Positions 6,927 through 54,957 of a DNA stretch of 64,000 nt are shown here, piece by piece; within the stretch, counting starts at the first letter, position 1; each line of letters begins with the position of its first letter. The notes beneath the pieces were generated by a model that saw only the letters and a list, made by a program, of their open reading frames with translations, was not told the DNA's origin and did no database searches. The position numbers and the translations under genes are program-made. The DNA is from a virus (lineage: Duplodnaviria > Caudoviricetes). The stretch lies in IMG/VR virus record IMGVR_UViG_3300044633_001982; one strand, given 5' to 3'.

Positions 6927-6953
6927 AAAAAAGGGGGTTTATTCCCCCTTTTT
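6927..6953. terminator. Bidirectional terminator overlapping the clpC 3' end
   Basis: AAAAAAGGGGG-TTTATT-CCCCCTTTTT at a convergent junction. Confidence 0.65.
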
Positions 6954-8981
6954 CTTTTTCCCTTTTTTAGTTGTTTTATTTTTTGTAAGGATAACATCTT
7001 CATCTTTAATTGAAATATTGTAGGATTCATTAATTTCAATATTATTCTTTAACACCTCATCCGACACAAAATCTTCAATTTTTTCTTGTATTGCTCTTTT
7101 TAATGGTCTTGCACCATATACCTCGTCAAATCCAACTTTAGAAATATATTCAATAACTGAATTATCAAATGTAATATCGTAACCAAGTTTAACTAACCTA
7201 TTTGTTAATTTTGATACCTCAACTAAAACAATTTTTTGAATGTCTTCGTCTTGTAATGTGTTGAATATTATAATTTCATCTAACCTATTAATAAACTCAG
7301 GGGCAAAATAGTTCTTTAACTCTTTAGTAAGAATTCCTTTTTTGGCTTCTTCATTTTTATAGACATTTTTTGATGAATCAAAACCAATTCCAGCACCAAA
7401 GTCTTGTAGTTTTTTAACTCCAATATTTGAAGTCATAATTATTAAACAATTCTTAAAATTAATCTTACGACCAAAACTATCAGTCATATATCCTTCGTCT
7501 AAAAGTTGAAGTAACGCTGAAAAAATATCTTTATGTGCTTTCTCAACTTCATCAAACAACACTACTGAATATGGTTTAGTTTTTACTTGTTCAGTTAATT
7601 GTCCTCCCTCGTCATAACCCACATATCCAGGAGGTGAACCAATCAATCGAGATACTGAGTGTTTTTCTTGGAATTCACTCATATCTACCCTTATCAGACT
7701 ATCTTCACTTCCAAATATTTGTTTTGCCAATTCTTTGGCCAATAAAGTTTTACCTACACCTGTTGACCCTAAAAATATAAATGAACCAATTGGTTTGTTT
7801 GGGTCTTTAATACCTAATCGATTTCTACGAATAGACTTTGCAATTTTGATAACCGCTTCTTTTTGACCTATTACAGACTTGTTAAGTTCTTCTTCTAAAT
7901 TAATTAAAACATTTTTATCGTCTAAACTTAATTTATTTAATGGGATTTTTGTCATGGTTGAAACCACATCATAAACTAATTCCTCAGGTACGTCTTTTCT
8001 ATTATGTAACAAATCCTCCTCAAATAACTTCTTTTCAATGTCTAAAAGATTTAAAACTTTTTTTTCTTTGTCCCTTAAACTAGCCGCTTCTTCATAATTT
8101 TGTTTTTTAACAACTAATAATTTTTGTTGTTTAATTTCCATCGCCTCTTTTTTTAATTCCTCAATAATCTCAGGGTTTTTAATATCAACTTGAGCTCTTG
8201 CTCCGACCTCGTCTAAAATGTCAAAAGCTTTATCTGGAAATTCTCTATCCGTAATATATCTCTCCGCCAAATCAACACATATTTGTAATATATTATCTGA
8301 AAATATTACTTTGTGGTAGTTTTCATATTTGTCTTTAACGTTTTTAAGAATTTGAAAAGTCTCCTCTTTAGTTGATGGACTAACTATTACTTTTTGAAAT
8401 CTTCTATCTAACGCCCCATCCTTCTCAATTTGTTTTTTGTATTCATCCAAAGTTGTAGCACCAATACATTGTATTTCACCACGAGATAACGCAGGTTTTA
8501 ATATGTTAGATGCGTCAAGGGAACCAGAAGCGTTACCTGCCCCGACAATTGTGTGGATTTCGTCAATGAATAGTATGACATTTGGATTCGCTTGAATTTC
8601 TTCTAAAATAACTTTTAACCTCTCTTCAAATTGACCACGATACTTGGTACCCGCAACAATTGAATTAATTTCTAAAGATAAAATTCGTTTATCTAAAAGA
8701 TTTCTTGGGCAGTCACCCTCAAATATTTTCATAGCTAAACCCTCAACTATTGCGGTCTTACCACATCCAGGTTCACCTATGATTATTGGGTTATTTTTTT
8801 TTCTTCGAGATAATATTTGGGCAATTCTAATAATTTCGTTTTCTCTACCAACAACGGGGTCTAATTTACCTTCCTCCGCTAATTTAATTAAGTCTCTACT
8901 AAAATTATCTAAAACAGGAGTATTGCTATTAGTCTCCACTTTTTTCGGATTTTTCATTCCGTCTTCAACTGAGTCTGTCAT
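6939..8981 (-). CDS. clpC: ClpC-type Hsp100 AAA+ unfoldase lacking the N-terminal domain
   Basis: GEPGCGKT and GSTGVGKT Walker A motifs, GTKYRGQFEERL, IDEIH, LFDEVEKAH, UVR-like M domain (QNYEEAASLRDKE), GAGIGF ClpP-docking loop, YGARPLKR; only ~20 aa precede LDNFSRDL. Confidence 0.9.
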   Translation of the reverse strand: MTDSVEDGMKNPKKVETNSNTPVLDNFSRDLIKLAEEGKLDPVVGRENEIIRIAQILSRRKKNNPIIIGEPGCGKTAIVEGLAMKIFEGDCPRNLLDKRILSLEINSIVAGTKYRGQFEERLKVILEEIQANPNVILFIDEIHTIVGAGNASGSLDASNILKPALSRGEIQCIGATTLDEYKKQIEKDGALDRRFQKVIVSPSTKEETFQILKNVKDKYENYHKVIFSDNILQICVDLAERYITDREFPDKAFDILDEVGARAQVDIKNPEIIEELKKEAMEIKQQKLLVVKKQNYEEAASLRDKEKKVLNLLDIEKKLFEEDLLHNRKDVPEELVYDVVSTMTKIPLNKLSLDDKNVLINLEEELNKSVIGQKEAVIKIAKSIRRNRLGIKDPNKPIGSFIFLGSTGVGKTLLAKELAKQIFGSEDSLIRVDMSEFQEKHSVSRLIGSPPGYVGYDEGGQLTEQVKTKPYSVVLFDEVEKAHKDIFSALLQLLDEGYMTDSFGRKINFKNCLIIMTSNIGVKKLQDFGAGIGFDSSKNVYKNEEAKKGILTKELKNYFAPEFINRLDEIIIFNTLQDEDIQKIVLVEVSKLTNRLVKLGYDITFDNSVIEYISKVGFDEVYGARPLKRAIQEKIEDFVSDEVLKNNIEINESYNISIKDEDVILTKNKTTKKGKKKKGE

Positions 8982-41521: not shown

Positions 41522-42520
41522 TTAATGGTTAACATTACCATCACTGTAATAAACAAACCAATAATTAATCATTTCATCTAACATTGTCTCAAATGTGTAA
41601 TCGTGAGACCATCCTGTTGATTTAATTAATTTAGATGAGTCTCCTTTTAAATCGTGTAGTTCTTCAGGCCTTAAAAATTTTTCGTCTTGTGCCACATATT
41701 CTTTATAGTCTAAACCTAATGATGTGAAAACATAATCACAAAGTTCTCTAACTGAATGTGAGATACCTGTGGCACAAACAAAATCATCAGGTTTGTCTAA
41801 TTGTAAAATTTCCCACATTGCTTTAACATAATCTTTGGCGTGTCCCCAATCTCGTGTTGCATCAAGATTACCCAATTTTAACTCATTAGATAGTCCTAAT
41901 TTAATCTTAACAGCTTCTTTACATACTTTATTGGTAACAAAGTTTGTTCCTCTTCTCGGTGATTCATGATTAAATAAAATTCCGTTTGAAATAAACATTC
42001 CGTAAGAATTTCTATAATTACGACAAATATTATAACTAAATACTTTGGAACAACCGTATGGTGATACAGGATTTAAAGGAGTAGTTTCTCTTTGAAACCC
42101 ATCTGAATCTATAGTGTTACCAAACATCTCAGATGATGACGCTTGATATATTTTGGTATTTGGTTTAATTAATTTAACCGCTTCTAATAAATTTAAAGTA
42201 CCTATACCTGTAACATTAGCGGTGTAAATTGGTTGGTCAAAAGATATTCTTACGTGGGATTGTGCTGCAAGATTGTAAATTTCATCCGGCATTACTTTTT
42301 GGATAATACTAATTAATGATGAAAGGTCAGTCATATCGGCGTAATGTAAAATTATTTTATCATATACGTTTTGTAATCTTGATGTTTGATTTTCGGAAAC
42401 TGAATTACGTTTAAGTGTTCCATGTACCTCATACCCCTTTTCTAATAAAAGTTCAGAAAGATATGACCCATCTTGACCATTAATACCTGTAATTAATGCA
42501 ATTTTTTTATCCATTTTCAT
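41522..42520 (-). CDS. gmd: GDP-mannose 4,6-dehydratase
   Basis: ALITGINGQDGSYL, YNLAAQSHV..SF, QASSSEMFG, SPYGCSK, LFNHESPRRG.NFVT.K, RDWGHAKDYV. Confidence 0.95.
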   Translation of the reverse strand: MKMDKKIALITGINGQDGSYLSELLLEKGYEVHGTLKRNSVSENQTSRLQNVYDKIILHYADMTDLSSLISIIQKVMPDEIYNLAAQSHVRISFDQPIYTANVTGIGTLNLLEAVKLIKPNTKIYQASSSEMFGNTIDSDGFQRETTPLNPVSPYGCSKVFSYNICRNYRNSYGMFISNGILFNHESPRRGTNFVTNKVCKEAVKIKLGLSNELKLGNLDATRDWGHAKDYVKAMWEILQLDKPDDFVCATGISHSVRELCDYVFTSLGLDYKEYVAQDEKFLRPEELHDLKGDSSKLIKSTGWSHDYTFETMLDEMINYWFVYYSDGNVNH

Positions 42521-43661
42521 TTATAATTTTACTTATTTTTTGAATTTCATTAATCGTTAAATCTTGATGATTTGGAATGTAAAATCCGTATTTATCAATT
42601 AATTCGCAATTTTTTAAATCAATTTTTCCGTAGTTTTCATACCACATTGGTTTATTTGACATGTTACCTGCAATAAGTGGTCTAACTTCAATATTATTTT
42701 TAATTAATTCATTAACAATTTTTTCTTTATTTTTGTTAACAATTGGTAACGCAAAATTTGATATAAAATTATTATCATCAATTTTTATATTTAAATCATT
42801 CACATTAATTAAATCTAAATAATTTTTAAAATTTTGATTTCTAATTAAACAATATTTGTCTAATTTATCAATAGCTCTAAGACCAATAAACGCTTGTAAA
42901 TCTGTAGACCGTAGATTGAACCCAGGTACGTAAAAGTTATATAAAGACGTGAAGTCATCTACAGAATATTTTTCACGTAATGATTTTTGTTTTTCTAACG
43001 GTAAATCTCTATCCCAACCGTGACTTCTCATCATTAATAATAAATGATAAAAATCTTCATCATTAGTATTAATAAACCCGCCTTCAATTGTACTTAAATG
43101 GTGTCCAAAATACATTGAAAAAAATGACGCAAACCCAAAAGAACCTAAATAATCGTTTTTATATTTTGACCCCATACTCTCACACACATCTTCAAATAGT
43201 ACAACGTCATATTTTTCACATAAACTTATAATTTTTTCCATGTCAGGAACTAAACCTAATGGAGATACTAAAATAAATGATGATGGGGACTCGGTTTTAA
43301 AAATATGTTCTAAGTGTTCTAAGTCACAAGACAAATCTTCTAAATTACAATCACACATAATTGGTTCCATACCAAGTAATATTGGAGAACTAACGTCTGT
43401 TGCCCAACTTAATGATGGAATTACTATTTTTTTATTTTTAATTTTTTTTGAATATAAAAAAGCGGCTAATGAAAGTAATATTGACGAGGACCCTGAATTA
43501 ACAAAAACCGAATATTTTGTCCCAATTTTTTTCGCCCATTTTTTTTCTAATTCAATAGTTAAATCACCTTTAGTTAACCTAGGTATCTCATCTTGAGATA
43601 ACCATTCTACAAGATACTTAATATCTTCTTTATTTATCGTATCACTTACTAATTTTATCAT
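42507..43661 (-). CDS. colD: GDP-4-keto-6-deoxy-D-mannose 3-dehydratase (ColD-type PLP enzyme)
   Basis: DegT-fold with His in place of the Schiff-base Lys (FSMYFGHHLSTIEGG); lacks the Cys cluster of E1/RfbH; flanked by gmd and an fcl-like gene. Confidence 0.8.
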   Translation of the reverse strand: MIKLVSDTINKEDIKYLVEWLSQDEIPRLTKGDLTIELEKKWAKKIGTKYSVFVNSGSSSILLSLAAFLYSKKIKNKKIVIPSLSWATDVSSPILLGMEPIMCDCNLEDLSCDLEHLEHIFKTESPSSFILVSPLGLVPDMEKIISLCEKYDVVLFEDVCESMGSKYKNDYLGSFGFASFFSMYFGHHLSTIEGGFINTNDEDFYHLLLMMRSHGWDRDLPLEKQKSLREKYSVDDFTSLYNFYVPGFNLRSTDLQAFIGLRAIDKLDKYCLIRNQNFKNYLDLINVNDLNIKIDDNNFISNFALPIVNKNKEKIVNELIKNNIEVRPLIAGNMSNKPMWYENYGKIDLKNCELIDKYGFYIPNHQDLTINEIQKISKIINENG

Positions 43662-44550
43662 AAACTTGTTTTATACCTTTTTCAAAAGGTAATGGACTAA
43701 AATTGGGAAGTAAATTATTTAACTTGTCTATTGACACATCTTTTCGGTATTGTCCATCAGGTTTTGTAGAATCAAAATTAATTTTAATATGTCCTAAGTT
43801 TAAAGAGTTTAACGAAATTTCAGCAATTTCTCTGATTGATAAATTTTCTTTATTTGCCACATTAAAACTTTCATATATATTCTTTGTTAAACATTCATTA
43901 ATAACCCAAGCTAAATCATCGGAATGCATAAATTGTCTTAATGGATTTCCTGAACCAAATAAAGTGATTTCACTTTGTGATAGTTTATTGGCTTGAATAA
44001 TCTTTTCAAGTAAGGCTGCGACAAAATGACTGTTTTCTCCCATTTTATCATTTTCACCGTATAAATTACAAGGTATTAAATATTGATAATTAGTACCATA
44101 TTGTTTGTTTAAAGAATCTATTTGGACTGCCAAACATCTTTTTGAATAACCGTAGGAAAAGTTAGTAATTGTTGGGGGACCTAAATGTAAATCAGTTTCA
44201 TTCATTGGATATTTTTCTACTGAATCAGGATAAATACACGTTGATAAAATTCCAATAAATTGAGTAACCCCAAATTTATATGAATACTCGACCATGTAAG
44301 TATTCATCTTAATATTTTCAATAAAATAATCGTATGGTTTTTTTATGTTGTCAATAATGCCCCCAACCTTAGCTGCTAAATGAACTATTTTGGTTGGTTT
44401 ATGTGTTTCAAACATACGTTTAACATCGTCTTCTTTAGTTAAATCATAATCTTTTGATGAAACGTATATTGAATGAGGTAGTAATTTTAAAAGTGATTTT
44501 CCTACCATTCCTGAACCACCAGTTATTAAAATTATTTCCTTATCTTTCAT
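43642..44550 (-). CDS. fcl: GDP-L-fucose synthase / GDP-colitose synthase (ColC-like) epimerase-reductase
   Basis: TGGSGMVG, HLAAKVGGI, LSTCIYP, YGYSKR, PCNLYGEND, SHFV, LRQFMHSDD, PDGQYRK. Confidence 0.9.
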   Translation of the reverse strand: MKDKEIILITGGSGMVGKSLLKLLPHSIYVSSKDYDLTKEDDVKRMFETHKPTKIVHLAAKVGGIIDNIKKPYDYFIENIKMNTYMVEYSYKFGVTQFIGILSTCIYPDSVEKYPMNETDLHLGPPTITNFSYGYSKRCLAVQIDSLNKQYGTNYQYLIPCNLYGENDKMGENSHFVAALLEKIIQANKLSQSEITLFGSGNPLRQFMHSDDLAWVINECLTKNIYESFNVANKENLSIREIAEISLNSLNLGHIKINFDSTKPDGQYRKDVSIDKLNNLLPNFSPLPFEKGIKQVYDKISK

Positions 44551-45211
44551 TTAAATAATCTATAATTTTATGCCTATCAATATCCATTAATCCCCTTTTG
44601 GTGTCAAATTCCCACTCAGTCTCCTCAAATCGTTTTAAAGTTTCTAATTTGTCCGATGTTAATTCATCATGTAATCTTATGTGATTAATAGATAAATCTA
44701 TTTGTTTAAATAAACTTAAACCATCTAACATAAAATATAAATAACCGTCATAAAAAACTGATTTAGATACACACCCAATAATGTCTAAAATACTTTTCGA
44801 TATTATTGGGAAATACCAAGTCTCGTTATGTGGGAATGCCGGATTATGATGTAAACAAATGAATTCACCCGAATACGGTTTAACTAAAGTATCCCATTTA
44901 TCAGTAATTATTGTCATATCGTCATTGGCACAAAATATAAATTCCCCTGAAGATTTTTCATAAAGTTCATTATAGAATTCATTAAGAGATGCGTACCCAT
45001 TTTTTCGCCCCGAAACAACTATAGTTATAAAATTAAATTTATCATATGATTTTAAACCATTAATTGTTTCAGTATCATCGTCGTCTACTTTAACTAATAT
45101 TTCAATATTATTTATATCATCACATTTATCAATTAAAGAATTTAATGTTTGTAATAAAAATTCGATTCTACCCCTACTTGGTAGAATTACACTAATTAAT
45201 TTTTTATTCAT
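44540..45211 (-). CDS. Glycosyltransferase family 2-like
   Basis: ISVILPSRGR, ILVKVDDDD, FCANDD. Confidence 0.75.
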   Translation of the reverse strand: MNKKLISVILPSRGRIEFLLQTLNSLIDKCDDINNIEILVKVDDDDTETINGLKSYDKFNFITIVVSGRKNGYASLNEFYNELYEKSSGEFIFCANDDMTIITDKWDTLVKPYSGEFICLHHNPAFPHNETWYFPIISKSILDIIGCVSKSVFYDGYLYFMLDGLSLFKQIDLSINHIRLHDELTSDKLETLKRFEETEWEFDTKRGLMDIDRHKIIDYLNER

Positions 45212-45510
45212 TTTTTATCAAAAAAAATATTGTCGTTTATTGCTTTATCGTCAATAAAAATATCGGCATTTAATTTAATTCCAACTCTTAATTTATGATA
45301 GTTAACTCCCCAATCTTTTAATTGGGAAGATGTAATATCCTCCCAATTAATTCCGGTTGTTGAACCTCTTGCAGTGTCTATAAGAATGGTATTTCCATCA
45401 TTATAAAGTTTATTTACTAAATTAATTCTTTCATGAAATGGTTTTGCGTTTAAATAATCACCGTCTGTATTGGTACAAAGAGTACCATCTAAATCAAAAC
45501 AATAAATCAT
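45208..45510 (-). CDS. Minimal HAD phosphatase (capsule-biosynthesis type)
   Basis: YCFDLDGTLC, TARG, K..ADIFIDDKA. Confidence 0.85.
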   Translation of the reverse strand: MIYCFDLDGTLCTNTDGDYLNAKPFHERINLVNKLYNDGNTILIDTARGSTTGINWEDITSSQLKDWGVNYHKLRVGIKLNADIFIDDKAINDNIFFDKK

Positions 45511-46347
45511 TTATTTTAAAATATTATTAACTTTTCTTAGTTTTTTTGCAATTGGTTTTTCAGTTTCGTATACCACTTTAACACCATCTCCCATAATTGA
45601 CTCAATTTTTCTAATTCCTGAAACTAATTCCTCAGAGTGTTCAATTGACGCCGCTTGGTCTGAACCATACATAGTTCTATCTTTTGTAATATGATACTCA
45701 ATACATTCAGAGCCTATTGATACTGCCGCAAAACAAGGAATTAATCCACTTGCGTGATTTGAAAAACCTATTTTATAATTTGGGTATTTTTGTTTTAAAG
45801 TTTTAATATAGTTAATATTAAGTTCTTCATCTTTAGTTGGATAGGTACTTGTACACGCCAATACGTACTCAACATTTTTTAAAATGGAAAGTGCCATATT
45901 AATTTCTTCTTCAGTTGACATCCCTGTTGAAACAATTACAGGTTTTCCTGTCTCATTAATACCATTTAAAAATTCTCTGTCGGTTAATAAGGCGGACGCT
46001 ATTTTATGGTACTTAACGTTACAATTTTCATTTATCAATTTTAAACTATTTAAATCCCAACATGAGACAATAAAATCCAAACCTAAATTATTAGAAAACG
46101 ATTCTAAAATTTTGTATTGTTCAATACTAAATTCTAAACCCATTTTTTGTTCACGATTAGTTGTCCCCCAAGGAGATTCTCTATATGCATCTAATTCTTC
46201 TTTAGTATATACTGAGTCAATATCTCTTTTTTGAAATTTGACTGCATCACATCCTGATGATTGTGCTTTAATAATTAATTCTTTGGCCAAATCTAAATCA
46301 CCATTATGATTAATTCCGATTTCTGCAATAATGTACGTTTTTTTCAT
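45511..46347 (-). CDS. neuB: N-acetylneuraminate synthase family protein (short, no AFP-like domain)
   Basis: IIAEIGINHNGD, DAVKFQKR, KIASA, STGM, CTSTYP, GFSNH, IEYHIT; start moved to ATG 46347. Confidence 0.9.
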   Translation of the reverse strand: MKKTYIIAEIGINHNGDLDLAKELIIKAQSSGCDAVKFQKRDIDSVYTKEELDAYRESPWGTTNREQKMGLEFSIEQYKILESFSNNLGLDFIVSCWDLNSLKLINENCNVKYHKIASALLTDREFLNGINETGKPVIVSTGMSTEEEINMALSILKNVEYVLACTSTYPTKDEELNINYIKTLKQKYPNYKIGFSNHASGLIPCFAAVSIGSECIEYHITKDRTMYGSDQAASIEHSEELVSGIRKIESIMGDGVKVVYETEKPIAKKLRKVNNILK

Positions 46348-46370
46348 TTTATTTGTTTTTTTTATTTTTA

Positions 46371-46949
46371 TTATTTTTTGAAAATTTGAGATTCGACTAA
46401 TTCTAATATTGTATGACCTAAAATCATATGACACTCTTGTATTCTTGCGGTATCATTTGAAGGAATGATAATTGATATATCTGAAATATCTTTAATTTCT
46501 CCCCCATCATTACCCAAAAAAGAAATAACGTGACCAAGTTCATTTTCAATAGATTTAATTGCCTTTATTACATTTTTAGATTTACCTGAAGTTGAGAATG
46601 ATATTAACACATCACCTTCATTAAAAGATGATTTAATCTCTCTTGAAAAGATTTCATCATATGAGTAGTCATTTGCTACTGCAGTTAAATATGAAAAATT
46701 AGAACCTAATAAAACAACTTCTAAAGGGTTCCTATCAAAATAGAATCGACCACTTAATTCCGCAGATAAATGTTGTGCATCTGAAAAACTACCACCATTA
46801 CCACAAAAATAAACTTTGTTACCTCTACCGTAACATTCGATTATTTTATTTGCAACTAACTCAATATTTTTTAACATGTTAACATCGTTTAAAATATTTT
46901 GTTTAAGTTCAATAGATTTTTTAATATTTTTAATAATTTTTTCTACCAT
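46371..46949 (-). CDS. gmhA: Sedoheptulose-7-phosphate isomerase (SIS)
   Basis: CGNGGSFSDAQHLSAEL.GRF, TAVANDY, FSTSGKSKNV, TARIQECH. Confidence 0.9.
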   Translation of the reverse strand: MVEKIIKNIKKSIELKQNILNDVNMLKNIELVANKIIECYGRGNKVYFCGNGGSFSDAQHLSAELSGRFYFDRNPLEVVLLGSNFSYLTAVANDYSYDEIFSREIKSSFNEGDVLISFSTSGKSKNVIKAIKSIENELGHVISFLGNDGGEIKDISDISIIIPSNDTARIQECHMILGHTILELVESQIFKK

Positions 46950-46953
46950 TTTT

Positions 46954-47841
46954 TTATTTTTGACAAATTGAAATTATTGTATCTGTTAAATTATTTTTAT
47001 TTAAAATTTTAAAATACTCTCGGTCAATTGACCCCCCATTAATCTCTTTAAAAATATTTTGACCACCTGGTTTACCGTCCTTTAACCAATATAAATGATT
47101 TGATAACCCATATCTTTGTAAACCATTTATTTTTATATTTTTAAATCCTGAGATTTTTAAATATTTTTTTAAACTGTTCTTTGTGTGAAGAATTAAATGT
47201 TCACTCCAAAAAGTATATTCTTTAAATGATTCCAAATTATACAATGTAATCAAAGCGTCATTTGCATTTGGTACTTCAATTATCAAATACCCATCAGGAT
47301 TAAGTATTGTATGTATTTTTTCTAAAATTTCAAGTGGGTTAGGAACATGTTCAAAAACATGAAATAAAGTAATTACGTCAAATTTTATATTATTATTAAT
47401 AATTTCTTCAATTGATTCAAATATGGTATAATTTAATTTTCTTAAATTATCTGCGATATTTTTTTGTGGCTCTAAACCACTAACATTGGTTGTCACTTGT
47501 TTTGCCATATCTAATACTCCACCTAAACCACACCCAAAATCTAAATAAGATTTATTTTCAATAAGATGGGATATTGATTTAAATCTTCTAATATCATCTC
47601 CGTATGTCAGTTCTAAAGCTTCATCTCTAGTTTTAGATTCCCAATATGAAAAATTTTCCATTTCTGTATAATGCTCATTTGATACGTGGTCTAAATTTTT
47701 AAGAAAAATAACTCCTGATTTTTTACACCTCATTACAGGTATGTTTTTGTTATCCCTTACATATGGATAAAATTCCTCAATCTTATTTTTATCGATTATT
47801 TTAAGGTCTATTAATTCTAAATATAAATTATTGTTTACCAT
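46954..47841 (-). CDS. Class I SAM-dependent methyltransferase
   Basis: YLDFGCGLGG, FDVITLFHVFEHV, GYLIIEVPN. Confidence 0.85.
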   Translation of the reverse strand: MVNNNLYLELIDLKIIDKNKIEEFYPYVRDNKNIPVMRCKKSGVIFLKNLDHVSNEHYTEMENFSYWESKTRDEALELTYGDDIRRFKSISHLIENKSYLDFGCGLGGVLDMAKQVTTNVSGLEPQKNIADNLRKLNYTIFESIEEIINNNIKFDVITLFHVFEHVPNPLEILEKIHTILNPDGYLIIEVPNANDALITLYNLESFKEYTFWSEHLILHTKNSLKKYLKISGFKNIKINGLQRYGLSNHLYWLKDGKPGGQNIFKEINGGSIDREYFKILNKNNLTDTIISICQK

Positions 47842-48653
47842 ACTGTTTTACCTCCATCAATTATTAAATTAGTTCCTGTCATATAAGAACTCGCGTCAGA
47901 ACACATAAAAACAATTGCCCCTTTGTATTCGTCAATATGGGCCATTCTTCCCATTGGGATAATATTACTTAGTTTATTTACAAAATCAATAGGATGGTCA
48001 TTATACACACCTGTTGGGCTTAAACAATTGACTCTTATATTGTTTTTTGCGAAATAAGTTGATAAGTATTTTGTCATCCCGACTACCGCCCATTTAGCTG
48101 CGGAATATGTTATTGGTTTAACGTTCTGTTCTTCTTCTTTTTTTGACTCATCACGATATATTCTTTGGTCAGGAGCAATTACACCTAAATCTGATGAAAT
48201 ATTTAAAACAACTCCCCCTCCTGTTTTTAACATCTTATTACAAATAACTTGAGAAGTCATAAACGTTCCATTTATAATTGCATCAATCCCTTCTTTAAAG
48301 TAAGATTCACTCATAACCTCAAATCTTGTTTCAGGAGTTAAACTATTATCATCTTTTGTTACCTTTGGGTCTTTAGCCGCATTATTAATTAATATGTCAA
48401 TTCTATCATATTTTTCACTAACAACTTCAATAGTGTCTTTTTTAGTGACATCCATATATTCTATACTGATATTTTCTATACCATATTTTTCTGAAAGATA
48501 CTGATACTTTTCTTTTAAATTATCCATATTAACATCTGTCAAAATTACTTTTGCTCCATACTCTAAGAGAGCTTCGGCGTGTTTTGGACCCAATAAACCA
48601 CCAGCACCTGTTATAAGTGCAATTTTACCATCTAAATCAAATAAGTTTCTCAT
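47835..48653 (-). CDS. SDR oxidoreductase
   Basis: ALITGAGGLLG, LINNAA, NISS..G, YSAAK, RVNCLSP, TGTNLIIDGG. Confidence 0.9.
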   Translation of the reverse strand: MRNLFDLDGKIALITGAGGLLGPKHAEALLEYGAKVILTDVNMDNLKEKYQYLSEKYGIENISIEYMDVTKKDTIEVVSEKYDRIDILINNAAKDPKVTKDDNSLTPETRFEVMSESYFKEGIDAIINGTFMTSQVICNKMLKTGGGVVLNISSDLGVIAPDQRIYRDESKKEEEQNVKPITYSAAKWAVVGMTKYLSTYFAKNNIRVNCLSPTGVYNDHPIDFVNKLSNIIPMGRMAHIDEYKGAIVFMCSDASSYMTGTNLIIDGGKTVW

Positions 48654-49420
48654 ATAATTTTATTAATTTTTTTTAACGTTTCGGATATGTAATTTACTTC
48701 GTTACATTCAACTTCTCTCGCGAGTTGTAAAATTACATTTTCATTATAGTTAATTTTTTTTAATATTTCAAATATTACTTTAAAATTTGTATCCCCAAAT
48801 CCAAACAATTTTGTTTCTCCTTGATAATTTCTATCTTTAATGTGAATATTTTTAATTTTATTACCAAAATACTGTATTAATTCTTGGTGATTAATATTTT
48901 CTTTATAAAAAGATGTAAAATTACCAGTGTCGTAGGTAATAAAAAAATTATCCATTCTATTCACAATTTTCATAACAATTTCTTTTTTACATTCAAATTC
49001 AAAACAAAAATCTATGTTTGGATATTTTACTGAAATAGGTACAAAATTCTTTAAAAATTTATATCTAATTGATATATCAGTAACTGAACTATCCTCAAGT
49101 AAAGGAATGACAACTTTTTTAATTTTTAATTCAGTCATTCTATTTAAAACAGGAATTAAATTTTTATTTAAAAATTTTTTTTTATAAAAATTTGTGTTAA
49201 CCATAGTGTCGACACATACGGATAAAATATTTTTAGGAAGATTATTATTAGTAAAAAATGGATTGGTTAAATTATCTTTTGGGGTAATTAACCACTCAAT
49301 ACCTGATATACCAATATGTTTAATATGATTAAATTCATTTTCCCAAGTATCTATTGGAAACTCTTGCATTTTATTATCGATAGGTTTACTTAACCTACCC
49401 TGTAATATCCCAATTTTCAT
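48650..49420 (-). CDS. Sugar-phosphate isomerase/epimerase (xylose-isomerase-like TIM barrel)
   Basis: GILQGRLS, FEFE, YDTGN, IHIKDR, LQ; xylose-isomerase-like metal-ligand pattern. Confidence 0.75.
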   Translation of the reverse strand: MKIGILQGRLSKPIDNKMQEFPIDTWENEFNHIKHIGISGIEWLITPKDNLTNPFFTNNNLPKNILSVCVDTMVNTNFYKKKFLNKNLIPVLNRMTELKIKKVVIPLLEDSSVTDISIRYKFLKNFVPISVKYPNIDFCFEFECKKEIVMKIVNRMDNFFITYDTGNFTSFYKENINHQELIQYFGNKIKNIHIKDRNYQGETKLFGFGDTNFKVIFEILKKINYNENVILQLAREVECNEVNYISETLKKINKII

Positions 49421-49830
49421 AATAACTCAACAAATTCAATTATATTATTTTCAGGGTCTTTTGCGAAAAAAACTTTAACGGTTTTTTCATCTGAAATTAT
49501 TGGATTATTTATCACTGATAAACCATTGTCTATCATTATTTTGTGTAAATTTTCAGAATCTTTTACTGTTAGTGCGAAATGAGTATACCCATTAGAAAAC
49601 AAATTTTTTTCAATTAACTCACAATTTTTAAAAAATAAAAGTTCAACAATTGTAGAGTTATCTTTACCTAACTTAATAATTCTTGGGGACAATTCTTTAG
49701 AATTTAATATATGGTTTAAAAAGTGTCCACTTTCAATTTTATCATACATTATATCTAATCCTAAAATTTTATGATAGAACCAAATCATTCTATCGATATC
49801 ATTTACTACAATTCCAACGTGTCTAAACAT
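49417..49830 (-). CDS. VOC/glyoxalase family protein
   Basis: RHVGIVV.D, VELL, THFALTV, FFAKDPENNIIE. Confidence 0.85.
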   Translation of the reverse strand: MFRHVGIVVNDIDRMIWFYHKILGLDIMYDKIESGHFLNHILNSKELSPRIIKLGKDNSTIVELLFFKNCELIEKNLFSNGYTHFALTVKDSENLHKIMIDNGLSVINNPIISDEKTVKVFFAKDPENNIIEFVELL

Positions 49831-51143
49831 TCTATTAAACTTTCTTTTAATACGTTAATACCTTCAATTAGTGCGTCATCTGAAATAGTAAGTGGGGGAC
49901 CTATTTTTAATGTCCCTGATTGAGTTCTAATTGATAACAATCCTTTTCTCATTGCAATTTCAATTAGTCTATCAACAAAATCAATATTATTACCGTCAGG
50001 TGATTCTATAAAAACTCCAGCTAACAAACCTTGGCAATTTACTTTCTTAACGTATTTTGACATTTGATGTTTCCATTCTAATAACTCAGACTCCATTAAT
50101 TTGCCCTTCCTCATTGATTCATTAATTAAATCATTTTCAATAAGGAATTTAACAGAGGCCTCAGACGCCGCAACCGCAACTGGATTCCCACCGTGAGTAC
50201 TATTATAAGACATATCAGTATTAATAATTTTATTGTTTGTTATGACACAAGATAGTGGTAATGACGATGAAATGCCTTTAGCACAAACAATAATATCAGG
50301 AATAATTTCAAAATGTTCATATGCAAAAAGTTTACCAGTTCTACCAAATCCTGATTGAATTTCATCTATGATTAATAAAACTTCATTTTTGGTACACCAT
50401 TCTCTTAGTAATTGTATGTATTCTTTAGACGCAAATTCCGCGGACCATCCTTGATATGGTTCCATTATGACTGCGGAATACTCATTAGGGTTGAGGTCTT
50501 TAAAATATTTTTCAAATAATTCTTTAGGAGATAAATTTTCATTTTTTATTGTGATTGAGTCAGGGTATGGTAAATGTGTTACGTAAGTTTTAACAGGTAT
50601 CCATTCTTGTGATTTGAATTTTCCCCCAACCATTGCGGAACCCATTGTTTTACCGTGATAACCATTATTAAATGAAATAACTTTGTTCTTATGGTTATAC
50701 TTAATTGACATCTTAATTGCACATTCAACTGATTCAGAGCCAGTTGATAAAAATAAAACCTTATCAAATTTTTCAGGGGTTATTTCAACAAGTAGTTTTG
50801 AAAACTCAGACCTTTCTTTTGTTGGGTAGTAGTAGGCGTTCAATAAGTTCCTATTTGTTTTTGAGATAATCGCCTCTTTTACTTTAGGGTTTGAGTGACC
50901 AACATTTGTAACAAATATTGAAGATGTAAAATCAATCCATTTATTACCTGAAACATCATAAACCGAATAATCAAGTGCCGAATCCCAAACAATTGGTAAT
51001 TGGTCATTCATTGAATTAGGTTCGTAATTAATACAATCCTGTATTATTTTGATAGTTTCCGGTGATGGAATTTTAGTTTGAATACATCTATTTTTTGTTT
51101 TTATTTTTACACATTCTATTGGGGTTTTTGAAAACTCATACAT
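49806..51143 (-). CDS. Class III PLP aminotransferase
   Basis: DVSGNKWIDF, NVGHSNP, STGSESVE, MEPYQG, DEIQSGFGRTG, AKGISS, STHGGNP. Confidence 0.9.
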   Translation of the reverse strand: MYEFSKTPIECVKIKTKNRCIQTKIPSPETIKIIQDCINYEPNSMNDQLPIVWDSALDYSVYDVSGNKWIDFTSSIFVTNVGHSNPKVKEAIISKTNRNLLNAYYYPTKERSEFSKLLVEITPEKFDKVLFLSTGSESVECAIKMSIKYNHKNKVISFNNGYHGKTMGSAMVGGKFKSQEWIPVKTYVTHLPYPDSITIKNENLSPKELFEKYFKDLNPNEYSAVIMEPYQGWSAEFASKEYIQLLREWCTKNEVLLIIDEIQSGFGRTGKLFAYEHFEIIPDIIVCAKGISSSLPLSCVITNNKIINTDMSYNSTHGGNPVAVAASEASVKFLIENDLINESMRKGKLMESELLEWKHQMSKYVKKVNCQGLLAGVFIESPDGNNIDFVDRLIEIAMRKGLLSIRTQSGTLKIGPPLTISDDALIEGINVLKESLIECLDTLEL

Positions 51144-51822
51144 ATTTTTTATTTTTAATTAGATATTCAATATACTCAAAATCTTCTATTGTGTCAATTT
51201 CTTGAGTTAAATTTGTTACATAAGAATATATTTTTTTCCCGTATAAGTTATCCCCTTTCATAAAAATTTCTGGTTTTACAATATCAATATAACCATTAGG
51301 GACATATGTTTTTGGATACGATTGTCTAGGATTATTTTGGTCCATATTTTCTACTATTGGATACCATAGTCCTCTTTTTTTAATAAAAAATTTATACGCG
51401 GATTCAGACATTTCATGTCCTGACCTAAGACTTGTAACCAAATGTTTATTTTTTTCAAATTCAAAAATTGCATCATCTAAAATATGTGGTTTTATAAGAG
51501 GGGTTGTGGCTCTTAAATGAACAATTGGGGAATTTATATTGGTAACATTACAAAAATGTTTAAATGCATCAATATCTAAAGAATTATCTTGACATAGTTC
51601 TAAAGGTCTATCAATAATTTTTACTCCATATGATAAAGAAATTTTTTTAATATCCTGACAATCTGTTGAGACATAAATTTCATTAATGTTACTTGTTTTT
51701 TTGGCGGCTTCAATTACGTAACCAATTAGTGGAACTCCATTTAATTCTTTAATATTTTTTTGAGGGACACCCTTACTTCCGCCCCGAGCTAAAATTAAAC
51801 AAACCATATTATTTTTCCGCAA
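51136..51822 (-). CDS. neuA: CMP-nonulosonic acid synthetase (acylneuraminate cytidylyltransferase)
   Basis: ILARGGSKGVPQKNI, VSTD, RPLEL..D, LRATTP, EIDTIEDF. Confidence 0.9.
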   Translation of the reverse strand: MRKNNMVCLILARGGSKGVPQKNIKELNGVPLIGYVIEAAKKTSNINEIYVSTDCQDIKKISLSYGVKIIDRPLELCQDNSLDIDAFKHFCNVTNINSPIVHLRATTPLIKPHILDDAIFEFEKNKHLVTSLRSGHEMSESAYKFFIKKRGLWYPIVENMDQNNPRQSYPKTYVPNGYIDIVKPEIFMKGDNLYGKKIYSYVTNLTQEIDTIEDFEYIEYLIKNKKYV

Positions 51823-52603
51823 TTATAATAAATTCAGTACCATCACAATTAAATTCACCTAACTCCCAATCTTGAAAAAAGATAATATTTTTAAAACCAA
51901 CCGACAACAACAAATTTTTTATTTGTTCTTTATTATAAATTTTTAAAATTACCGACGAATTACTCTTTTTATTTTCATCCCTTGAAATAAATGTTTTATC
52001 CCACGTTAAAAAATTATTTGAGTCGTCAAATTTACAATCCCAAAGAGAATATTGCCATGGGTCAGGATAATCAAACTCATCCCAAATTTTACCACCCATT
52101 TTAATAGAATCTAAAATTTTTTTACACCCATCGAGTTCAATTATTATCTTACCATTTTTTTTCAAAGTTTCATAAACATCCTTTAATAATTTAATTTCAA
52201 AACCTTCGGATATTGGTTCACAAAACTGAAAAGATAAATCTGACATATAACATAAATCAATATTAGAAAAATTATATTTTTTTAAATTTAAAAAATTATC
52301 ACATATATTTTTAACATTTTCTATGTTTAAATCACGTCTCCAATTTTCCGCAAAATTAAATCTGTCTTCACTTATTTCAAATCCGTACCCAAAATTGAGT
52401 AAATTTTTTAAATTCAAATTATATAATAATTTTGAATTACCTGAACCCAATTCTAAAATATTAATTTTTTCTTTAAAAAAAGAATTTATAAATTTTAAAT
52501 TTTTTTCACAATCGTTTAATTTATTTTGACGATATTTTTCCATTTCGTTTTTATCGTAAAATATTTCATACCCATTATAAGCTGTTAAATTTTTGTGTGA
52601 CAT
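51809..52603 (-). CDS. Class I SAM-dependent methyltransferase
   Basis: ILELGSGNSK, GFEIS, LKKNGKIIIE. Confidence 0.75.
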   Translation of the reverse strand: MSHKNLTAYNGYEIFYDKNEMEKYRQNKLNDCEKNLKFINSFFKEKINILELGSGNSKLLYNLNLKNLLNFGYGFEISEDRFNFAENWRRDLNIENVKNICDNFLNLKKYNFSNIDLCYMSDLSFQFCEPISEGFEIKLLKDVYETLKKNGKIIIELDGCKKILDSIKMGGKIWDEFDYPDPWQYSLWDCKFDDSNNFLTWDKTFISRDENKKSNSSVILKIYNKEQIKNLLLSVGFKNIIFFQDWELGEFNCDGTEFIIIAEK

Positions 52604-52606
52604 TTT

Positions 52607-53344
52607 TTATAAGATATTAGAAGTATTAAAAATTTTCTTTAAATGAGACATATCACTTAGATTTTGAATCTCGACATTTATTTTTTCGGCACTTTGTTTA
52701 ATTATTTCAAAATCGGTTAATATCTCATCAAGATGAGGATTAAAACTTGAGTAGTTGGTAAAGTCTGGTGAAACATACCCTAATGAGTAGTTTAACTCAA
52801 CTCCACAAATATATATTTTTTTACACCCAAGTAATATCGCTAAAGCCAACATGTGTACCGCAACTGTACTACCTGTACTATATATTTTTTCGTAATTTGT
52901 ATAATTTTTTAATAATTCTTGTATTGTTAAAAATTTTGGATTTAAATTATGACATTTATTTGGACAATTAGTACAAGTTTCTCCATTAAAATGTCTTTGG
53001 TCATATCTAAAGTAGTTCGTGTCTACATTTTCAACTATCCATTCCCAAGGGGTGGTGTCAACAGAATCGGCATGTACAACAGTAGTATTTGGAAATTTTT
53101 TAAAAGTTTCTACCATTGAATGTATAGTTTGGTGGGAATTTGCAAAAACCCAATAATTAGGGACTATTTTTGTCATAATGTTAATTTCATTACAACAAAT
53201 TTTAATGTAATCATTATTACTTTCTAAAATGTTTAAATAATTCCCCAAAGAAGGTCCTGTACCACAGATTATTGCCGTTTTACCAACTTCTTTATTAATT
53301 AATTTTGAAATATCTTGATTAGTCATTGTAGTATAATAATCCAT
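52607..53344 (-). CDS. Maf/DUF115-like putative nonulosonic-acid transferase
   Basis: TAIICGTGPSL, CCNE, STVAVHMLALAILLGCKKIYICGVEL. Confidence 0.7.
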   Translation of the reverse strand: MDYYTTMTNQDISKLINKEVGKTAIICGTGPSLGNYLNILESNNDYIKICCNEINIMTKIVPNYWVFANSHQTIHSMVETFKKFPNTTVVHADSVDTTPWEWIVENVDTNYFRYDQRHFNGETCTNCPNKCHNLNPKFLTIQELLKNYTNYEKIYSTGSTVAVHMLALAILLGCKKIYICGVELNYSLGYVSPDFTNYSSFNPHLDEILTDFEIIKQSAEKINVEIQNLSDMSHLKKIFNTSNIL

Positions 53345-54149
53345 TATTAAATTTTACATTTATTTTTTTCCACTCATTTTCATACACATTATTAAATTCT
53401 TTTTCACCTCTTGGGCCAAACCAAATATTAGGGACAAAAACTTTGTTATCTTTATTTTGGTTTAAAAAAGACCCCCACCAAGAAAAAGATGAGTTTGACA
53501 TTATATTATTTTTACAAAGACTAATCATCCATAGGTCTTCATAATCGTCATTATCTTCAACAAATATAACTTTATCAGATTTAATATTATTTTTTACCCA
53601 AGTAAAATCATCTGAAAAAATAAAAAATGTTTCAGTTTCAGGTAAAAGACTCATACAGTGTTTAATATATGAAATATCTATAACTGGTAGTATATCAGAT
53701 ATTGTTAGATAATCACCTCTTCTAATATGAATTGATGTCGTATTATTAGATAATAATTGAGGGTATTTTTTAAATATTTTTTCTTTAAATTCTTCAGAAG
53801 GTAAGAATAAATCAATTATTTCTTTGTCATACCCTAAAAAATTTTTACTACTTTGAAAATACCCATTAAACCCAACTGACTCGTCCCAATTAAAATTCAA
53901 GTTAGGTTCATTCCAACTATACTCACTAACTATTTTTTTAACATTTATATTATTAACAAAATTAATTTTTTTAAAAATATTATTAATATAATGTGTGGGT
54001 TGTTTTGCTTTACCCATTGGGGTGTATGCTTGTGGTAAAAAAACCGATGGTATTTTATTTTTTAACCCCTGAGAATACGAATGTGCAATTTGAAACATTT
54101 GGTTACCTAAACCTCCTTGTAACAATGCGGTAGATATTATATTATCCAT
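53319..54149 (-). CDS. GT11 alpha-1,2-fucosyl/colitosyltransferase
   Basis: LQGGLGNQMFQ, GYFQS, SIHIRRGDY, FSDD, NSSFSWWG. Confidence 0.92.
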   Translation of the reverse strand: MDNIISTALLQGGLGNQMFQIAHSYSQGLKNKIPSVFLPQAYTPMGKAKQPTHYINNIFKKINFVNNINVKKIVSEYSWNEPNLNFNWDESVGFNGYFQSSKNFLGYDKEIIDLFLPSEEFKEKIFKKYPQLLSNNTTSIHIRRGDYLTISDILPVIDISYIKHCMSLLPETETFFIFSDDFTWVKNNIKSDKVIFVEDNDDYEDLWMISLCKNNIMSNSSFSWWGSFLNQNKDNKVFVPNIWFGPRGEKEFNNVYENEWKKINVKFNNGLLYYND

Positions 54150-54957
54150 TAGTTTTTAATTTATTATAAATTATTGAGTCAGGTAAAATGTAAGATTTAG
54201 ATTTTTCGTAATTTTCAATTACAAAAGGTAACATTTTTTCATATAAATCTTTATTACAACTTGTTAAAATATCTTCTATTTCTTCTATTTTGTCAAAACA
54301 AATCATTCCTTTAGTGTTAAAAAAATCACCAATCGATGGACACCCCCAATAAATCGGGATAGTCCCAGTTGTAAAACAGTCTATTAATTTTTCAGTAAAC
54401 CAGTAATCTCTTTTACAGTTTTCAATTACTATTGAAAATCTATAATCTTTTAAACCTTCTATTTTTCTATCAATTGGTGAATAACCTCTACCATAAACAT
54501 CCATTTTATCTTTATATCTATCTATAACCAAATGACGTAATTGATGTCCGTCAGTTTGTCTTTTATTTGAAGATATAATTGATATGTCTTTTGATTTTTT
54601 ATAAACTTTTTGTTGTTCAGGGTCAATCCAACAACATCCAAAAGGTACTAATTCAAAATTCTTATTTAAATCAAGTAATGATTTTTCATGTGTAAAAACT
54701 TTATTAAAATTTTGGTGATTATTTAAAATATAGTTGTAGGTATTTGAGTTAATACACATTGGTTCAATTAACCAAGCATAGTTTTTTTCATAATTATCTA
54801 TTTTTTCATGTCCTAACATGAAATCTGTATATACACATGGAATACTTGAGTCTAAATTTGACCTATCCCAAAAAAACCTATTGTCTTTTTGAAAATCGCT
54901 ACAATAACCCAATACGCTATGTGAAAAAGTAATATCTTTTAAATTTATTTTATCCAT
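54142..54957 (-). CDS. GT10-like fucosyltransferase
   Basis: YRFSIVIEN...WFTEKLIDCF..GTIPIYWG. Confidence 0.8.
   Translation of the reverse strand: MDKINLKDITFSHSVLGYCSDFQKDNRFFWDRSNLDSSIPCVYTDFMLGHEKIDNYEKNYAWLIEPMCINSNTYNYILNNHQNFNKVFTHEKSLLDLNKNFELVPFGCCWIDPEQQKVYKKSKDISIISSNKRQTDGHQLRHLVIDRYKDKMDVYGRGYSPIDRKIEGLKDYRFSIVIENCKRDYWFTEKLIDCFTTGTIPIYWGCPSIGDFFNTKGMICFDKIEEIEDILTSCNKDLYEKMLPFVIENYEKSKSYILPDSIIYNKLKTNG

Follow-up and report, generated by a model that had tools for sequence, protein, structure and literature searches.

A phage gene cluster predicted to make a tailored, CMP-activated ulosonic acid

Eleven genes carried by a phage appear to form one late-expressed unit, in which a 3-deoxy-2-ulosonic acid would be made by a phosphorylated-sugar route, tailored, activated with CMP and passed to a Maf-type transferase. 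We put the probability of this reading at about 0.7.

Gene content and layout

The cluster lies on the minus strand at positions 45208-53344 of a 64,000-nucleotide stretch of viral DNA (IMG/VR record IMGVR_UViG_3300044633_001982), called the window here. A preliminary description had placed gmhA, a short neuB, a HAD phosphatase, neuA, a Maf gene and tailoring genes in one unit, and all eleven genes were found, tightly coupled: neighbours overlap by up to 26 nt or stand at most 23 nt apart. The genes are:

45208..45510, minus strand: minimal capless HAD-type sugar-phosphate phosphatase (predicted), 100 aa; motifs, weak TIGR01689, PDB 9iqw
45511..46347, minus strand: SAF-less NeuB-family PEP-condensing ulosonate synthase, 278 aa; PF03102, 202 bits
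46371..46949, minus strand: GmhA, sedoheptulose-7-phosphate isomerase family; gmhA models 171-174 bits, alignment to 2xbl
46954..47841, minus strand: SAM methyltransferase 1 (Methyltransf_23); PF13489, 93 bits
47835..48653, minus strand: short-chain dehydrogenase (SDR), distantly PtmA-like; adh_short_C2, 126 bits
48650..49420, minus strand: xylose-isomerase-like TIM barrel, probable keto-sugar epimerase; PF01261, 38 bits
49417..49830, minus strand: VOC/glyoxalase-fold protein; PF00903, 35.6 bits
49806..51143, minus strand: class III (omega-type) aminotransferase; PF00202, 295 bits
51136..51822, minus strand: NeuA-type CMP-ulosonate synthetase, TTG start; PF02348, 83 bits
51809..52603, minus strand: SAM methyltransferase 2; PF13847, 32 bits
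52607..53344, minus strand: Maf/MptE-like (DUF115) putative ulosonate transferase; PF01973, 60 bits

The window also encodes a terminase, a portal, a major head protein and a prohead protease and is therefore assigned to a phage, in keeping with the earlier view of the carrier, which is a large lake phage. The gene leaders have no Shine-Dalgarno sequence, a hint that the host may belong to the Bacteroidota. Almost the same gene set is seen in viral loci L003-L010. Nor is the cluster confined to phages: an almost identical one is carried by a MAG of the Mariprofundaceae (L103).

Searches with Pfam, NCBIfam or PHROGs covered around 60 ORFs of the window. No NeuC, PseB/C or LegB/C was detected among them, and no heptose kinase, GmhB or heptose nucleotidyltransferase/adenylyltransferase, which agrees with what had been stated for the window before. 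A Leg/Pse set (4,6-dehydratase, aminotransferase, N-acetyltransferase, and hydrolysing 2-epimerase or PseG) was likewise not found in the window, where the sole dehydratase/DegT pair is Gmd and a ColD-type His variant. In this DegT protein the catalytic Lys is replaced by His (YFGHHLSTIEGG) and the top score is on RfbH; it is thus assigned as the ColD-type dehydratase of a GDP-colitose set, which is the Gmd/DegT/epimerase trio directly downstream of the eleven genes.

Synthase and phosphatase

The synthase belongs to the NeuB family by its PF03102 score (cut-off 22.1), and the metal and PEP ligands are kept. The description of a short neuB stands, but the listed start does not: the listed ORF (45511-46434, GTG) runs into gmhA, and the true start is the ATG at 46347. 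The protein ends approximately 13 residues past the start of the linker that leads to the SAF domain in canonical NeuB, and its best PDB match is 6ncs, a short NeuB of 290 aa. Equivalents of the N. meningitidis residues E25, K53, Q55, K129, S132, Y186, H215, E234, H236 and D247 are retained. The position of Glu134 is occupied by Leu120, and both the SAF domain and the equivalent of its arginine, R314, are missing. Because the Glu134 equivalent and the SAF arginine are absent, the sugar chemistry may differ from that of the characterised enzymes.

The HAD gene begins with an ATG immediately after the NeuB stop codon. Motifs I-IV (DxDxT, S/T, K, DD) are readable in its translation as FDLDGT, IDTARG, Lys and FIDDK. 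The proposed phosphatase is supported to that extent, but it has only 100 aa and no Pfam match, and its similarity to TIGR01689 ('capsule biosynthesis phosphatase') is weak (25.8 bits, E 8e-6, cut-off 162). PDB 9iqw ('capsule biosynthesis protein') is matched with E 5e-9. The protein falls below every curated cut-off and represents a small subfamily distinct from the Kdn-9-P/KdsC phosphatases.

Relatives of the SAF-less NeuB were found in at least 223 viral stretches (223/238) and at least 594 bacterial stretches (594/600), and roughly half of 162 retrieved loci have a HAD phosphatase gene next to NeuB. The viral partner is the TIGR01689/9iqw-like 100-aa type (40 of 82 NeuB loci). The bacterial partner resembles KdsC and Kdn-9-P phosphatase (32 of 80); it scores best on the Kdn-9-P phosphatase model NF058599, with 118 bits, and is above the cut-off of TIGR01670. 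Numerous family members, those of Streptomyces included, have no HAD nearby. Since members of this NeuB family so regularly have a HAD phosphatase as partner, a phosphosugar (Kdn-type) route has indirect support, and the Kdn/Kdo-type order suggested earlier, in which synthase, HAD phosphatase and CMP-transferase act in turn, fits these data.

Isomerase, activation and tailoring

GmhA aligns over 182 residues, with no gap, to B. pseudomallei GmhA (2xbl; E 4e-45). The motifs GNGGS, DAQH..AE, STSGKS and IQE.H...GH are retained, and with them the catalytic and Zn-binding His, Glu, Gln and His and the Ser/Thr phosphate loop. The gmhA models score below their cut-offs (TIGR00441, 171.5 against 209.45), so the earlier identification holds for the catalytic motifs but not at the equivalog threshold; that cut-off is also missed by 13 of the 14 GmhA proteins encoded in ten bacterial genomes, including second copies unlinked to NeuB. 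By its sequence, the protein looks like a genuine sedoheptulose-7-P isomerase.

NeuA has a cytidylyltransferase domain (PF02348, 82.9 bits, cut-off 22.6) and reaches 102 bits, under the cut-off, on the PseF model. Its nearest solved structures are the CMP-Neu5Ac synthetases 6ifd, 1qwj and 1eyr. The Maf protein scores 60.2 bits on DUF115 (cut-off 34.6) and weakly matches the CST-I sialyltransferase; in 19 viral loci NeuB has a Maf gene no more than 8 kb away, often immediately upstream.

No other gene of the cluster is as well conserved as that of the SDR (approximately 70% identity, against 48% for NeuB), which scores 163 bits on NF006619 and 100 bits on NF050062 (PtmA), both under the cut-off. 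The TIM barrel is probably a keto-sugar epimerase: its AlphaFold model (pLDDT 95.7) is nearest in fold to L-ketose 3-epimerase, the L-xylulose-5-P 3-epimerase UlaE, psicose/tagatose 3-epimerases and the 3-keto-glucoside 4-epimerase YcjR. The VOC protein nearly always accompanies the class III aminotransferase, whose nearest solved structures are GABA aminotransferase, acetylornithine aminotransferase and Ile 2-epimerase. As these relatives act on amino acids, not sugars, the aminotransferase module could make a side-chain substituent instead. Three families hold the aminotransferase position, with class III here, class IV in locus L011 and DegT in L080. Methyltransferase 1 is repeatedly present in related clusters, and homologues of methyltransferase 2 occur in L003, L008, L041-L044, L050 and L103. 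NeuB-HAD, NeuB-NeuA-aminotransferase-VOC and TIM-SDR recur as conserved modules.

Proposed pathway

All substrates, the order of tailoring and the acceptor are what we infer from here on. An isomerase, here GmhA, would convert a ketose phosphate to an aldose phosphate of the manno type, which the SAF-less NeuB would condense with PEP to an ulosonate phosphate. The 100-aa HAD would take off the phosphate, NeuA would add CMP, and Maf would transfer the finished sugar. At some stage, the SDR would oxidise a hydroxyl and the TIM-barrel epimerase would invert a centre next to it; an amine would be installed by the aminotransferase, working with the VOC protein, and the two methyltransferases would methylate.

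The Kdo pathway runs through the SIS isomerase KdsD, KdsA, the HAD phosphatase KdsC and KdsB. The phage set shares this four-step logic starting from a SIS-fold ketose-phosphate isomerase, but it uses a NeuB-family synthase in place of the KdsA/DAHP-synthase type, and its isomerase is of the GmhA type, not KdsD. The CMP-Kdn pathway of Bacteroides thetaiotaomicron and Prymnesium parvum, in which the route from Man-6-P via Kdn-9-P to a phosphatase is established, likewise has a NeuB-family synthase, then a HAD phosphatase and a CMP-transferase, and no NeuC (PMC6200933). The bacterial HAD partners add to this likeness; the phage set differs in its other HAD subfamily and in adding GmhA, the oxidise-epimerise-aminate-methylate tailoring and Maf. 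The E. coli YcjS/YcjR pair also combines a dehydrogenase with a xylose-isomerase-like TIM-barrel epimerase acting beside a keto group (a match of fold), whereas the phage dehydrogenase is an SDR (GFO-type in some relatives) and an aminotransferase follows.

Backbone length and alternatives

A nine-carbon, Kdn-like backbone made from a hexose-6-P has, in our estimate, slightly less than an even chance, and a length other than nine or ten carbons is unlikely. We regard ten carbons, the version of the preliminary description and one nested in the main reading, as a tentative and somewhat less likely option than nine. Here GmhA would make D-glycero-D-manno-heptose 7-phosphate, and NeuB would join PEP to this sugar phosphate, or to a form of it that has been epimerised or aminated, giving 3-deoxy-dec-2-ulosonic acid 10-phosphate; the product would be dephosphorylated, CMP-activated and transferred. 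Heptose-7-P and Man-6-P have the same manno configuration, which favours this version, and the gapless match of GmhA to a solved GmhA gives no sign of a shorter substrate.

The linkage of the two genes bears on the same question. The preliminary description had called for a search for conserved gmhA-neuB-HAD synteny, and 27 of 150 loci were found to have GmhA close to NeuB, as a recurrent component of such clusters. Among 80 bacterial loci, 22 have it within 10 kb of the SAF-less NeuB, far beyond chance (a random gene is expected in approximately 0.5% of genomes), and it adjoins NeuB and HAD in diverse bacteria and one archaeon. No HldE-type kinase or GmhB was detected in GmhA-bearing MAGs labelled Chloroflexus, Peregrinibacteria and Nitrosopelagicus, which speaks for ten carbons, although these MAGs are incomplete; these lineages are not known to make LPS. 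Five related viral records also have no HldE-type kinase. The coupling is nevertheless partial. Most NeuB+HAD clusters have no GmhA, among them that of the close relative L011, whose NeuB is 77% identical, and in 28 loci a small cupin, which almost never co-occurs with GmhA, takes its slot. In the NeuB tree the GmhA, cupin and 'none' contexts are interleaved; the GmhA-linked NeuBs form no clade, and supported branches force at least 11 context switches. No NeuB column was found to track GmhA (six supported pairs; low power), and the Streptomyces members come from known producers of nine-carbon Kdn. These points count against ten carbons.

CMP-linked ten-carbon ulosonic acids have been reported in Magnetospirillum gryphiswaldense by mass spectrometry (bioRxiv 10.64898/2026.04.20.719630). 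As in the ten-carbon version, which they favour, these are CMP-linked alpha-keto acid sugars with a backbone of more than nine carbons; that observation has no assigned genes. Against that version, the marker is +CH2, not +CH2O, and thus not simply a hydroxylated heptose-derived chain.

It is quite unlikely that GmhA serves solely to raise the host's production of heptose nucleotides for other, GT9-like phage transferases while NeuB, HAD and NeuA form a separate route that turns host Man-6-P into plain Kdn or something closely related. The island does combine several donor-sugar routes, with the GDP-colitose trio next door, and a close relative has a GT9 (heptosyltransferase-family) gene (PF01075, 50.7 bits) 40 kb from its NeuB cluster, an alternative use for heptose that also weakens the ten-carbon version. 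In a Melainabacteria MAG, GmhA lies 9 kb from NeuB and belongs to an ordinary heptose set, since a GmhB-like gene and a nucleotidyltransferase sit with it. In the phage, however, gmhA is part of the unit itself, an ulosonate operon, with 23 nt separating it from neuB downstream and 4 nt from methyltransferase 1 upstream. It differs from GmhA of the ADP-/GDP-heptose pathways, despite full-length similarity, in that the window shows no kinase, GmhB or nucleotidyltransferase among the scanned ORFs; unrelated bacteria in which no heptose-nucleotide genes are visible have gmhA embedded in the same way.

A Leg/Pse-type pathway with nucleotide-sugar precursor genes elsewhere in phage or host, and with HAD and GmhA unrelated to NeuB, is highly improbable: Maf, the PtmA-like SDR and the methyltransferases do resemble Campylobacter flagellin loci, and in many distant viral relatives genes for a 4,6-dehydratase and a DegT aminotransferase lie immediately upstream of Maf-NeuB, but no NeuC/LegG, PseG or N-acetyltransferase is seen in the window or among the annotated ORF families of those relatives, the window DegT belongs to the colitose set, NeuB scores far under the NeuB and PseI equivalog cut-offs (TIGR03569, 228 against 399.65; TIGR03586, 158 against 340.25), and the recurrent HAD would be left with no role.

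Proposed transfer of the finished sugar

For the proposed ulosonate pathway, the closing step recalls the Maf-dependent Pse/Leg glycosylation of flagellin in Campylobacter, Helicobacter and Aeromonas, where Maf/DUF115 also occurs beside NeuB and NeuA with a PtmA-like SDR and methyltransferases. PtmF of those systems is an oxidoreductase, not a SIS protein, and the phage set differs in having no PseB/C/H/G or LegB/C/H/G. Since the genes belong to a phage, a virion protein rather than flagellin would presumably be the acceptor; Maf would probably decorate the phage's own Thr/Pro-rich virion proteins.

The gene unit and its phage setting

The window is phage DNA, since it encodes a large terminase, a portal, a major head protein and a T4-type prohead protease. 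Upstream of the genes for terminase, portal and head protein, the phage encodes a 680-aa ClpB/Hsp104-like double AAA+ protein (6939–8981, minus strand). Family searches combined with motif reading recovered the gene set that the preliminary description had placed at 45208–53344. It consists of eleven co-directional genes on the minus strand, in which neighbours overlap by up to 26 nt or are separated by up to 23 nt, and the HAD start codon directly follows the NeuB stop codon. The true start of NeuB is the ATG at 46347, as opposed to the upstream GTG of the raw ORF list, which overlaps gmhA. The 100-aa HAD had zero Pfam matches.

Genes of the ulosonate unit in order of transcription, and the adjoining trio
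1, minus strand, Maf/MptE-like putative ulosonate transferase (Maf; PF01973, 60 bits)
2, minus strand, methyltransferase 2 (MT2)
3, minus strand, NeuA (PF02348, 83 bits)
4, minus strand, class III aminotransferase (AT3; 295 bits)
5, minus strand, VOC protein (glyoxalase fold)
6, minus strand, xylose-isomerase-like TIM barrel (TIM)
7, minus strand, SDR
8, minus strand, methyltransferase 1 (MT1)
9, minus strand, GmhA (sedoheptulose-7-phosphate isomerase family)
10, 45511–46347, minus strand, NeuB (278 aa)
11, minus strand, HAD phosphatase, 100 aa (four motifs; weak TIGR01689 match; PDB 9iqw)
Directly downstream of the unit, 41522–44550, minus strand, Gmd/DegT/epimerase trio

At 13 of the 13 gene starts examined (44540–54149, minus strand), the leader is A/T-rich and has no Shine–Dalgarno sequence, as is typical of Bacteroidota-type translation initiation. 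A scan for promoters and terminators gave the same counts as shuffled sequences and defined no unit boundaries. When the region was compared with phage records by megablast, there were no matches; the protein search matched three phage records and no others.

As claimed in the preliminary description, NeuC, PseB/C, LegB/C, a heptose kinase and a heptose nucleotidyltransferase are absent from the approximately 60 window ORFs scanned; an N-acetyltransferase and GmhB were likewise not found among them. The trio comprises Gmd (396 bits), a DegT protein and an Fcl-like reductase/epimerase. The DegT protein contains YFGHHLSTIEGG, in which the catalytic Lys is replaced by His, as well as SHGWDR, and its best model is RfbH. 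The trio is a GDP-colitose-type set, separate from the ulosonate unit. We considered it as a source of Leg/Pse-like precursor genes, and this was ruled out by the ColD-type His-for-Lys exchange, the RfbH match and the Fcl-like epimerase. Genes resembling GT11 and GT10 fucosyltransferases lie near the trio, at 53319–54957.

NeuB is a synthase without the SAF domain

NeuB consists of the barrel only. Compared with N. meningitidis NeuB, the chain stops 13 residues past the start of the linker, and therefore the SAF domain and Arg314 are missing. The equivalents of E25, K53, Q55, K129, S132, Y186, H215, E234, H236 and D247 are retained. Glu134 of the meningococcal enzyme corresponds to Leu120 in the window NeuB and to Met in the family consensus; the SAF-less family has the motif K-x-A-S-A-M/L-L-T at this site, where PseI and SpsE have Glu. 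The basic residues R41, R56, K68 and the tail K269-L-R271 are invariant and specific to the family, and R65 is almost invariant. We infer that some of these residues are putative phosphate ligands. The closest solved relative is 6ncs, a short NeuB of 290 aa. SAF-less enzymes make up approximately 30 % of the NeuB family and include environmental and Streptomyces members (PMC8208679); Kdn polymers are found in Streptomyces walls (PMC11481543).

GmhA

The window GmhA aligns with B. pseudomallei GmhA over 182 residues with no gaps (E 4e-45). It retains GNGGS, DAQH..AE, STSGKS and IQE.H...GH, which comprise the catalytic and zinc residues and the phosphate loop. In ten genomes, NeuB-linked GmhA copies scored 161–206 bits with the NCBIfam model and second copies 185–211 bits. 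The sub-threshold score of the window GmhA is uninformative, because only one of these 14 copies passes the cut-off.

The cluster members designated GmhA in loci L066, L088, L089 and L094 were set aside, as the catalytic Glu/Gln is absent (HFVTDM/RIEDGH). These SIS proteins lie near NeuB; L088 and L094 have them immediately upstream of it, on the other strand. Their neighbours in the Acidobacteriota loci L089 and L094 include a nucleotidyltransferase, a 4,6-dehydratase and a DegT aminotransferase. As a group they constitute a distinct, uncharacterised SIS subfamily. An analogy between GmhA and Campylobacter PtmF, regarded as the SIS isomerase partner of PtmA, was dropped since the literature lists PtmF as a 326-aa oxidoreductase. 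No link between a phosphoheptose isomerase and nonulosonic acid synthesis was found in the literature searched.

Tailoring enzymes

The predicted structure of the TIM barrel (pLDDT 95.7) matches ketose 3-epimerases, UlaE and the 3-keto-glucoside 4-epimerase YcjR. The predicted fold of a 121-aa cupin from related clusters resembles the CapF cupin, which epimerises keto sugars, as well as D-lyxose/mannose isomerases, and does not favour either; when its sequence was searched against solved structures, no match was significant. The nearest relatives of the class III aminotransferase are GABA and acetylornithine enzymes, and the SDR is strongly conserved across clusters. Taken together, these folds and relationships suggest a set for oxidation, epimerisation beside a ketone, transamination and methylation.

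Related NeuB loci

Of 238 viral stretches matched, 223 contained a NeuB relative, as did at least 594 bacterial or archaeal stretches (594 of 600 among the matches listed). ORFs were clustered from 82 viral loci and 80 cellular ones. Of the viral loci, 40 carry the 100-aa HAD no more than 8 kb from NeuB. A KdsC-like HAD adjoins NeuB in 32 bacterial loci among the 80 cellular ones; it scores highest with the model of the B. thetaiotaomicron Kdn-9-P phosphatase (118 bits), and TIGR01670 scores above its cut-off.

The recurrent modules are NeuB–NeuA, aminotransferase–VOC–methyltransferase, TIM–SDR (in some loci joined by a GFO oxidoreductase or a further SDR) and an isomerase slot ahead of the HAD. 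GmhA fills this slot in the window as well as in L003–L010 (TIM SDR GmhA NeuB HAD); the 121-aa cupin fills it in many other loci, among them L057, L062 and L059 (TIM SDR Cupin HAD). The GmhA–NeuB–HAD synteny raised in the preliminary description does recur. Across 150 loci, GmhA occurs without the cupin in 26, the cupin without GmhA in 27 and both in one. The set of L103, a Mariprofundaceae MAG, approximates that of the window (GmhA, HAD, NeuB, TIM, NeuA, AT3, VOC, MT2, MT1 and SDR). L011, with a NeuB 77 % identical to that of the window, keeps TIM, SDR, NeuB and HAD; a class IV aminotransferase replaces AT3/VOC, and GmhA is absent. In L080 the corresponding position in the gene order is taken by a DegT aminotransferase.

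Ten gut/rumen Melainabacteria/Gastranaerophilales loci (L085, L086, L097, L120, L123, L133, L150, L152–L154) carry a pair of SAF-less NeuB and KdsC-like HAD directly after fliO, followed in several by a long TPR protein; the fliO linkage suggests flagellar glycosylation with a Kdn-type sugar. In the marine viral loci L041–L044, L050 and L059 (approximately 2.4–6.8 kb of the locus), the DegT, dehydratase, Maf and NeuB genes are preceded by genes for an acetolactate-synthase-like TPP enzyme, a PanB-like ketopantoate hydroxymethyltransferase (326 bits) and an RmlD-like reductase. The preceding set may be a pathway for a pantoate-like acyl substituent.

A tree of 139 NeuBs shows the three contexts (GmhA, cupin and "none") interleaved, and supported branches force at least 11 changes for each. 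The window clade (six GmhA-linked NeuBs and L011) is nested among cupin-linked and unlinked NeuBs with 100 % support. No alignment column was found to track the presence of GmhA, in a comparison that holds only six well-supported independent contrasts. Because the contexts are interleaved and no column tracks GmhA, the NeuB sequences give no sign of specialisation for the GmhA product; a tolerant synthase would fit equally.

Pathway and alternatives

In the best-supported account, to which we assign a probability of approximately 0.7, a tailored CMP-ulosonic acid is made by a Kdn/Kdo-like phosphosugar route and transferred by Maf. The SDR would oxidise, the TIM barrel would epimerise next to the ketone, the aminotransferase would add an amine and the methyltransferases would methylate; Maf would then hand over the tailored CMP-ulosonic acid.

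As a special case, which we hold only tentatively, NeuB would condense D-glycero-D-manno-heptose 7-phosphate, or a tailored form of it, to a 3-deoxy-dec-2-ulosonic acid that is CMP-activated and placed on the virion. The intact GmhA and its embedding in the operon argue for this C10 product, as do CMP-linked C10 ulosonic acids recently reported from mass spectrometry (bioRxiv 10.64898/2026.04.20.719630). However, the cupin replaces GmhA in other clusters, L011 does without it, the NeuB tree is interleaved, Streptomyces relatives produce Kdn, and a GT9 gene of a close relative could use heptose.

An unlikely alternative to the tailored Kdn/Kdo-like route is a mosaic, in which GmhA boosts host heptose-nucleotide synthesis and NeuB, HAD and NeuA make plain Kdn or a near relative. 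HldE-type kinase and GmhB genes are present in the proteobacterial genomes checked, and one Melainabacteria GmhA, 9 kb from NeuB, is clearly part of an ordinary heptose set. Neither HldE-type kinase nor GmhB was detected in three incomplete MAGs with GmhA inside the NeuB cluster (Chloroflexus, Peregrinibacteria and Nitrosopelagicus), lineages that are not known to make LPS. An Acidobacteriota genome (G015) was rejected as an example free of heptose-nucleotide genes, owing to an RfaE-kinase-like gene (265 bits). The 316-kb viral record L053 encodes NeuA, NeuB, VOC, SDR, methyltransferase, SDR and GmhA. An NTP_transferase gene (161 bits) lies approximately 9 kb upstream, and an HldE-type kinase was not found in this record. 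A Leg/Pse-type pathway is very improbable beside the tailored Kdn/Kdo-like route.

Implications

Ulosonic acids cap surface glycans and steer recognition by phages, lectins and immune systems. To our knowledge, all characterised members have eight or nine carbons. The type of route is already known. The combined set of SAF-less NeuB, minimal HAD, embedded GmhA or cupin, tailoring genes and Maf, for which we found no description in the literature searched, occurs on the phage and in many uncultured bacteria. The SAF-less NeuB clusters form a large, biochemically uncharacterised family of hundreds of viral and bacterial loci, with a modular logic of isomerase slot, synthase, phosphatase, CMP-transferase and a set that oxidises, epimerises, aminates and methylates. 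A true-looking GmhA is repeatedly wired into them, and with four enzymes of the GmhA-linked clusters one could test concretely where the C10 CMP-ulosonic acids, seen so far only by mass spectrometry, come from. If the C10 product is true, the GmhA–NeuB–HAD module in bacteria and archaea would be the genetic basis of higher-carbon ulosonic acids. If the product is C9, the clusters would still make a sialic-like sugar, aminated and methylated, by a route independent of nucleotide sugars, and the phage would dress its own particle with it.
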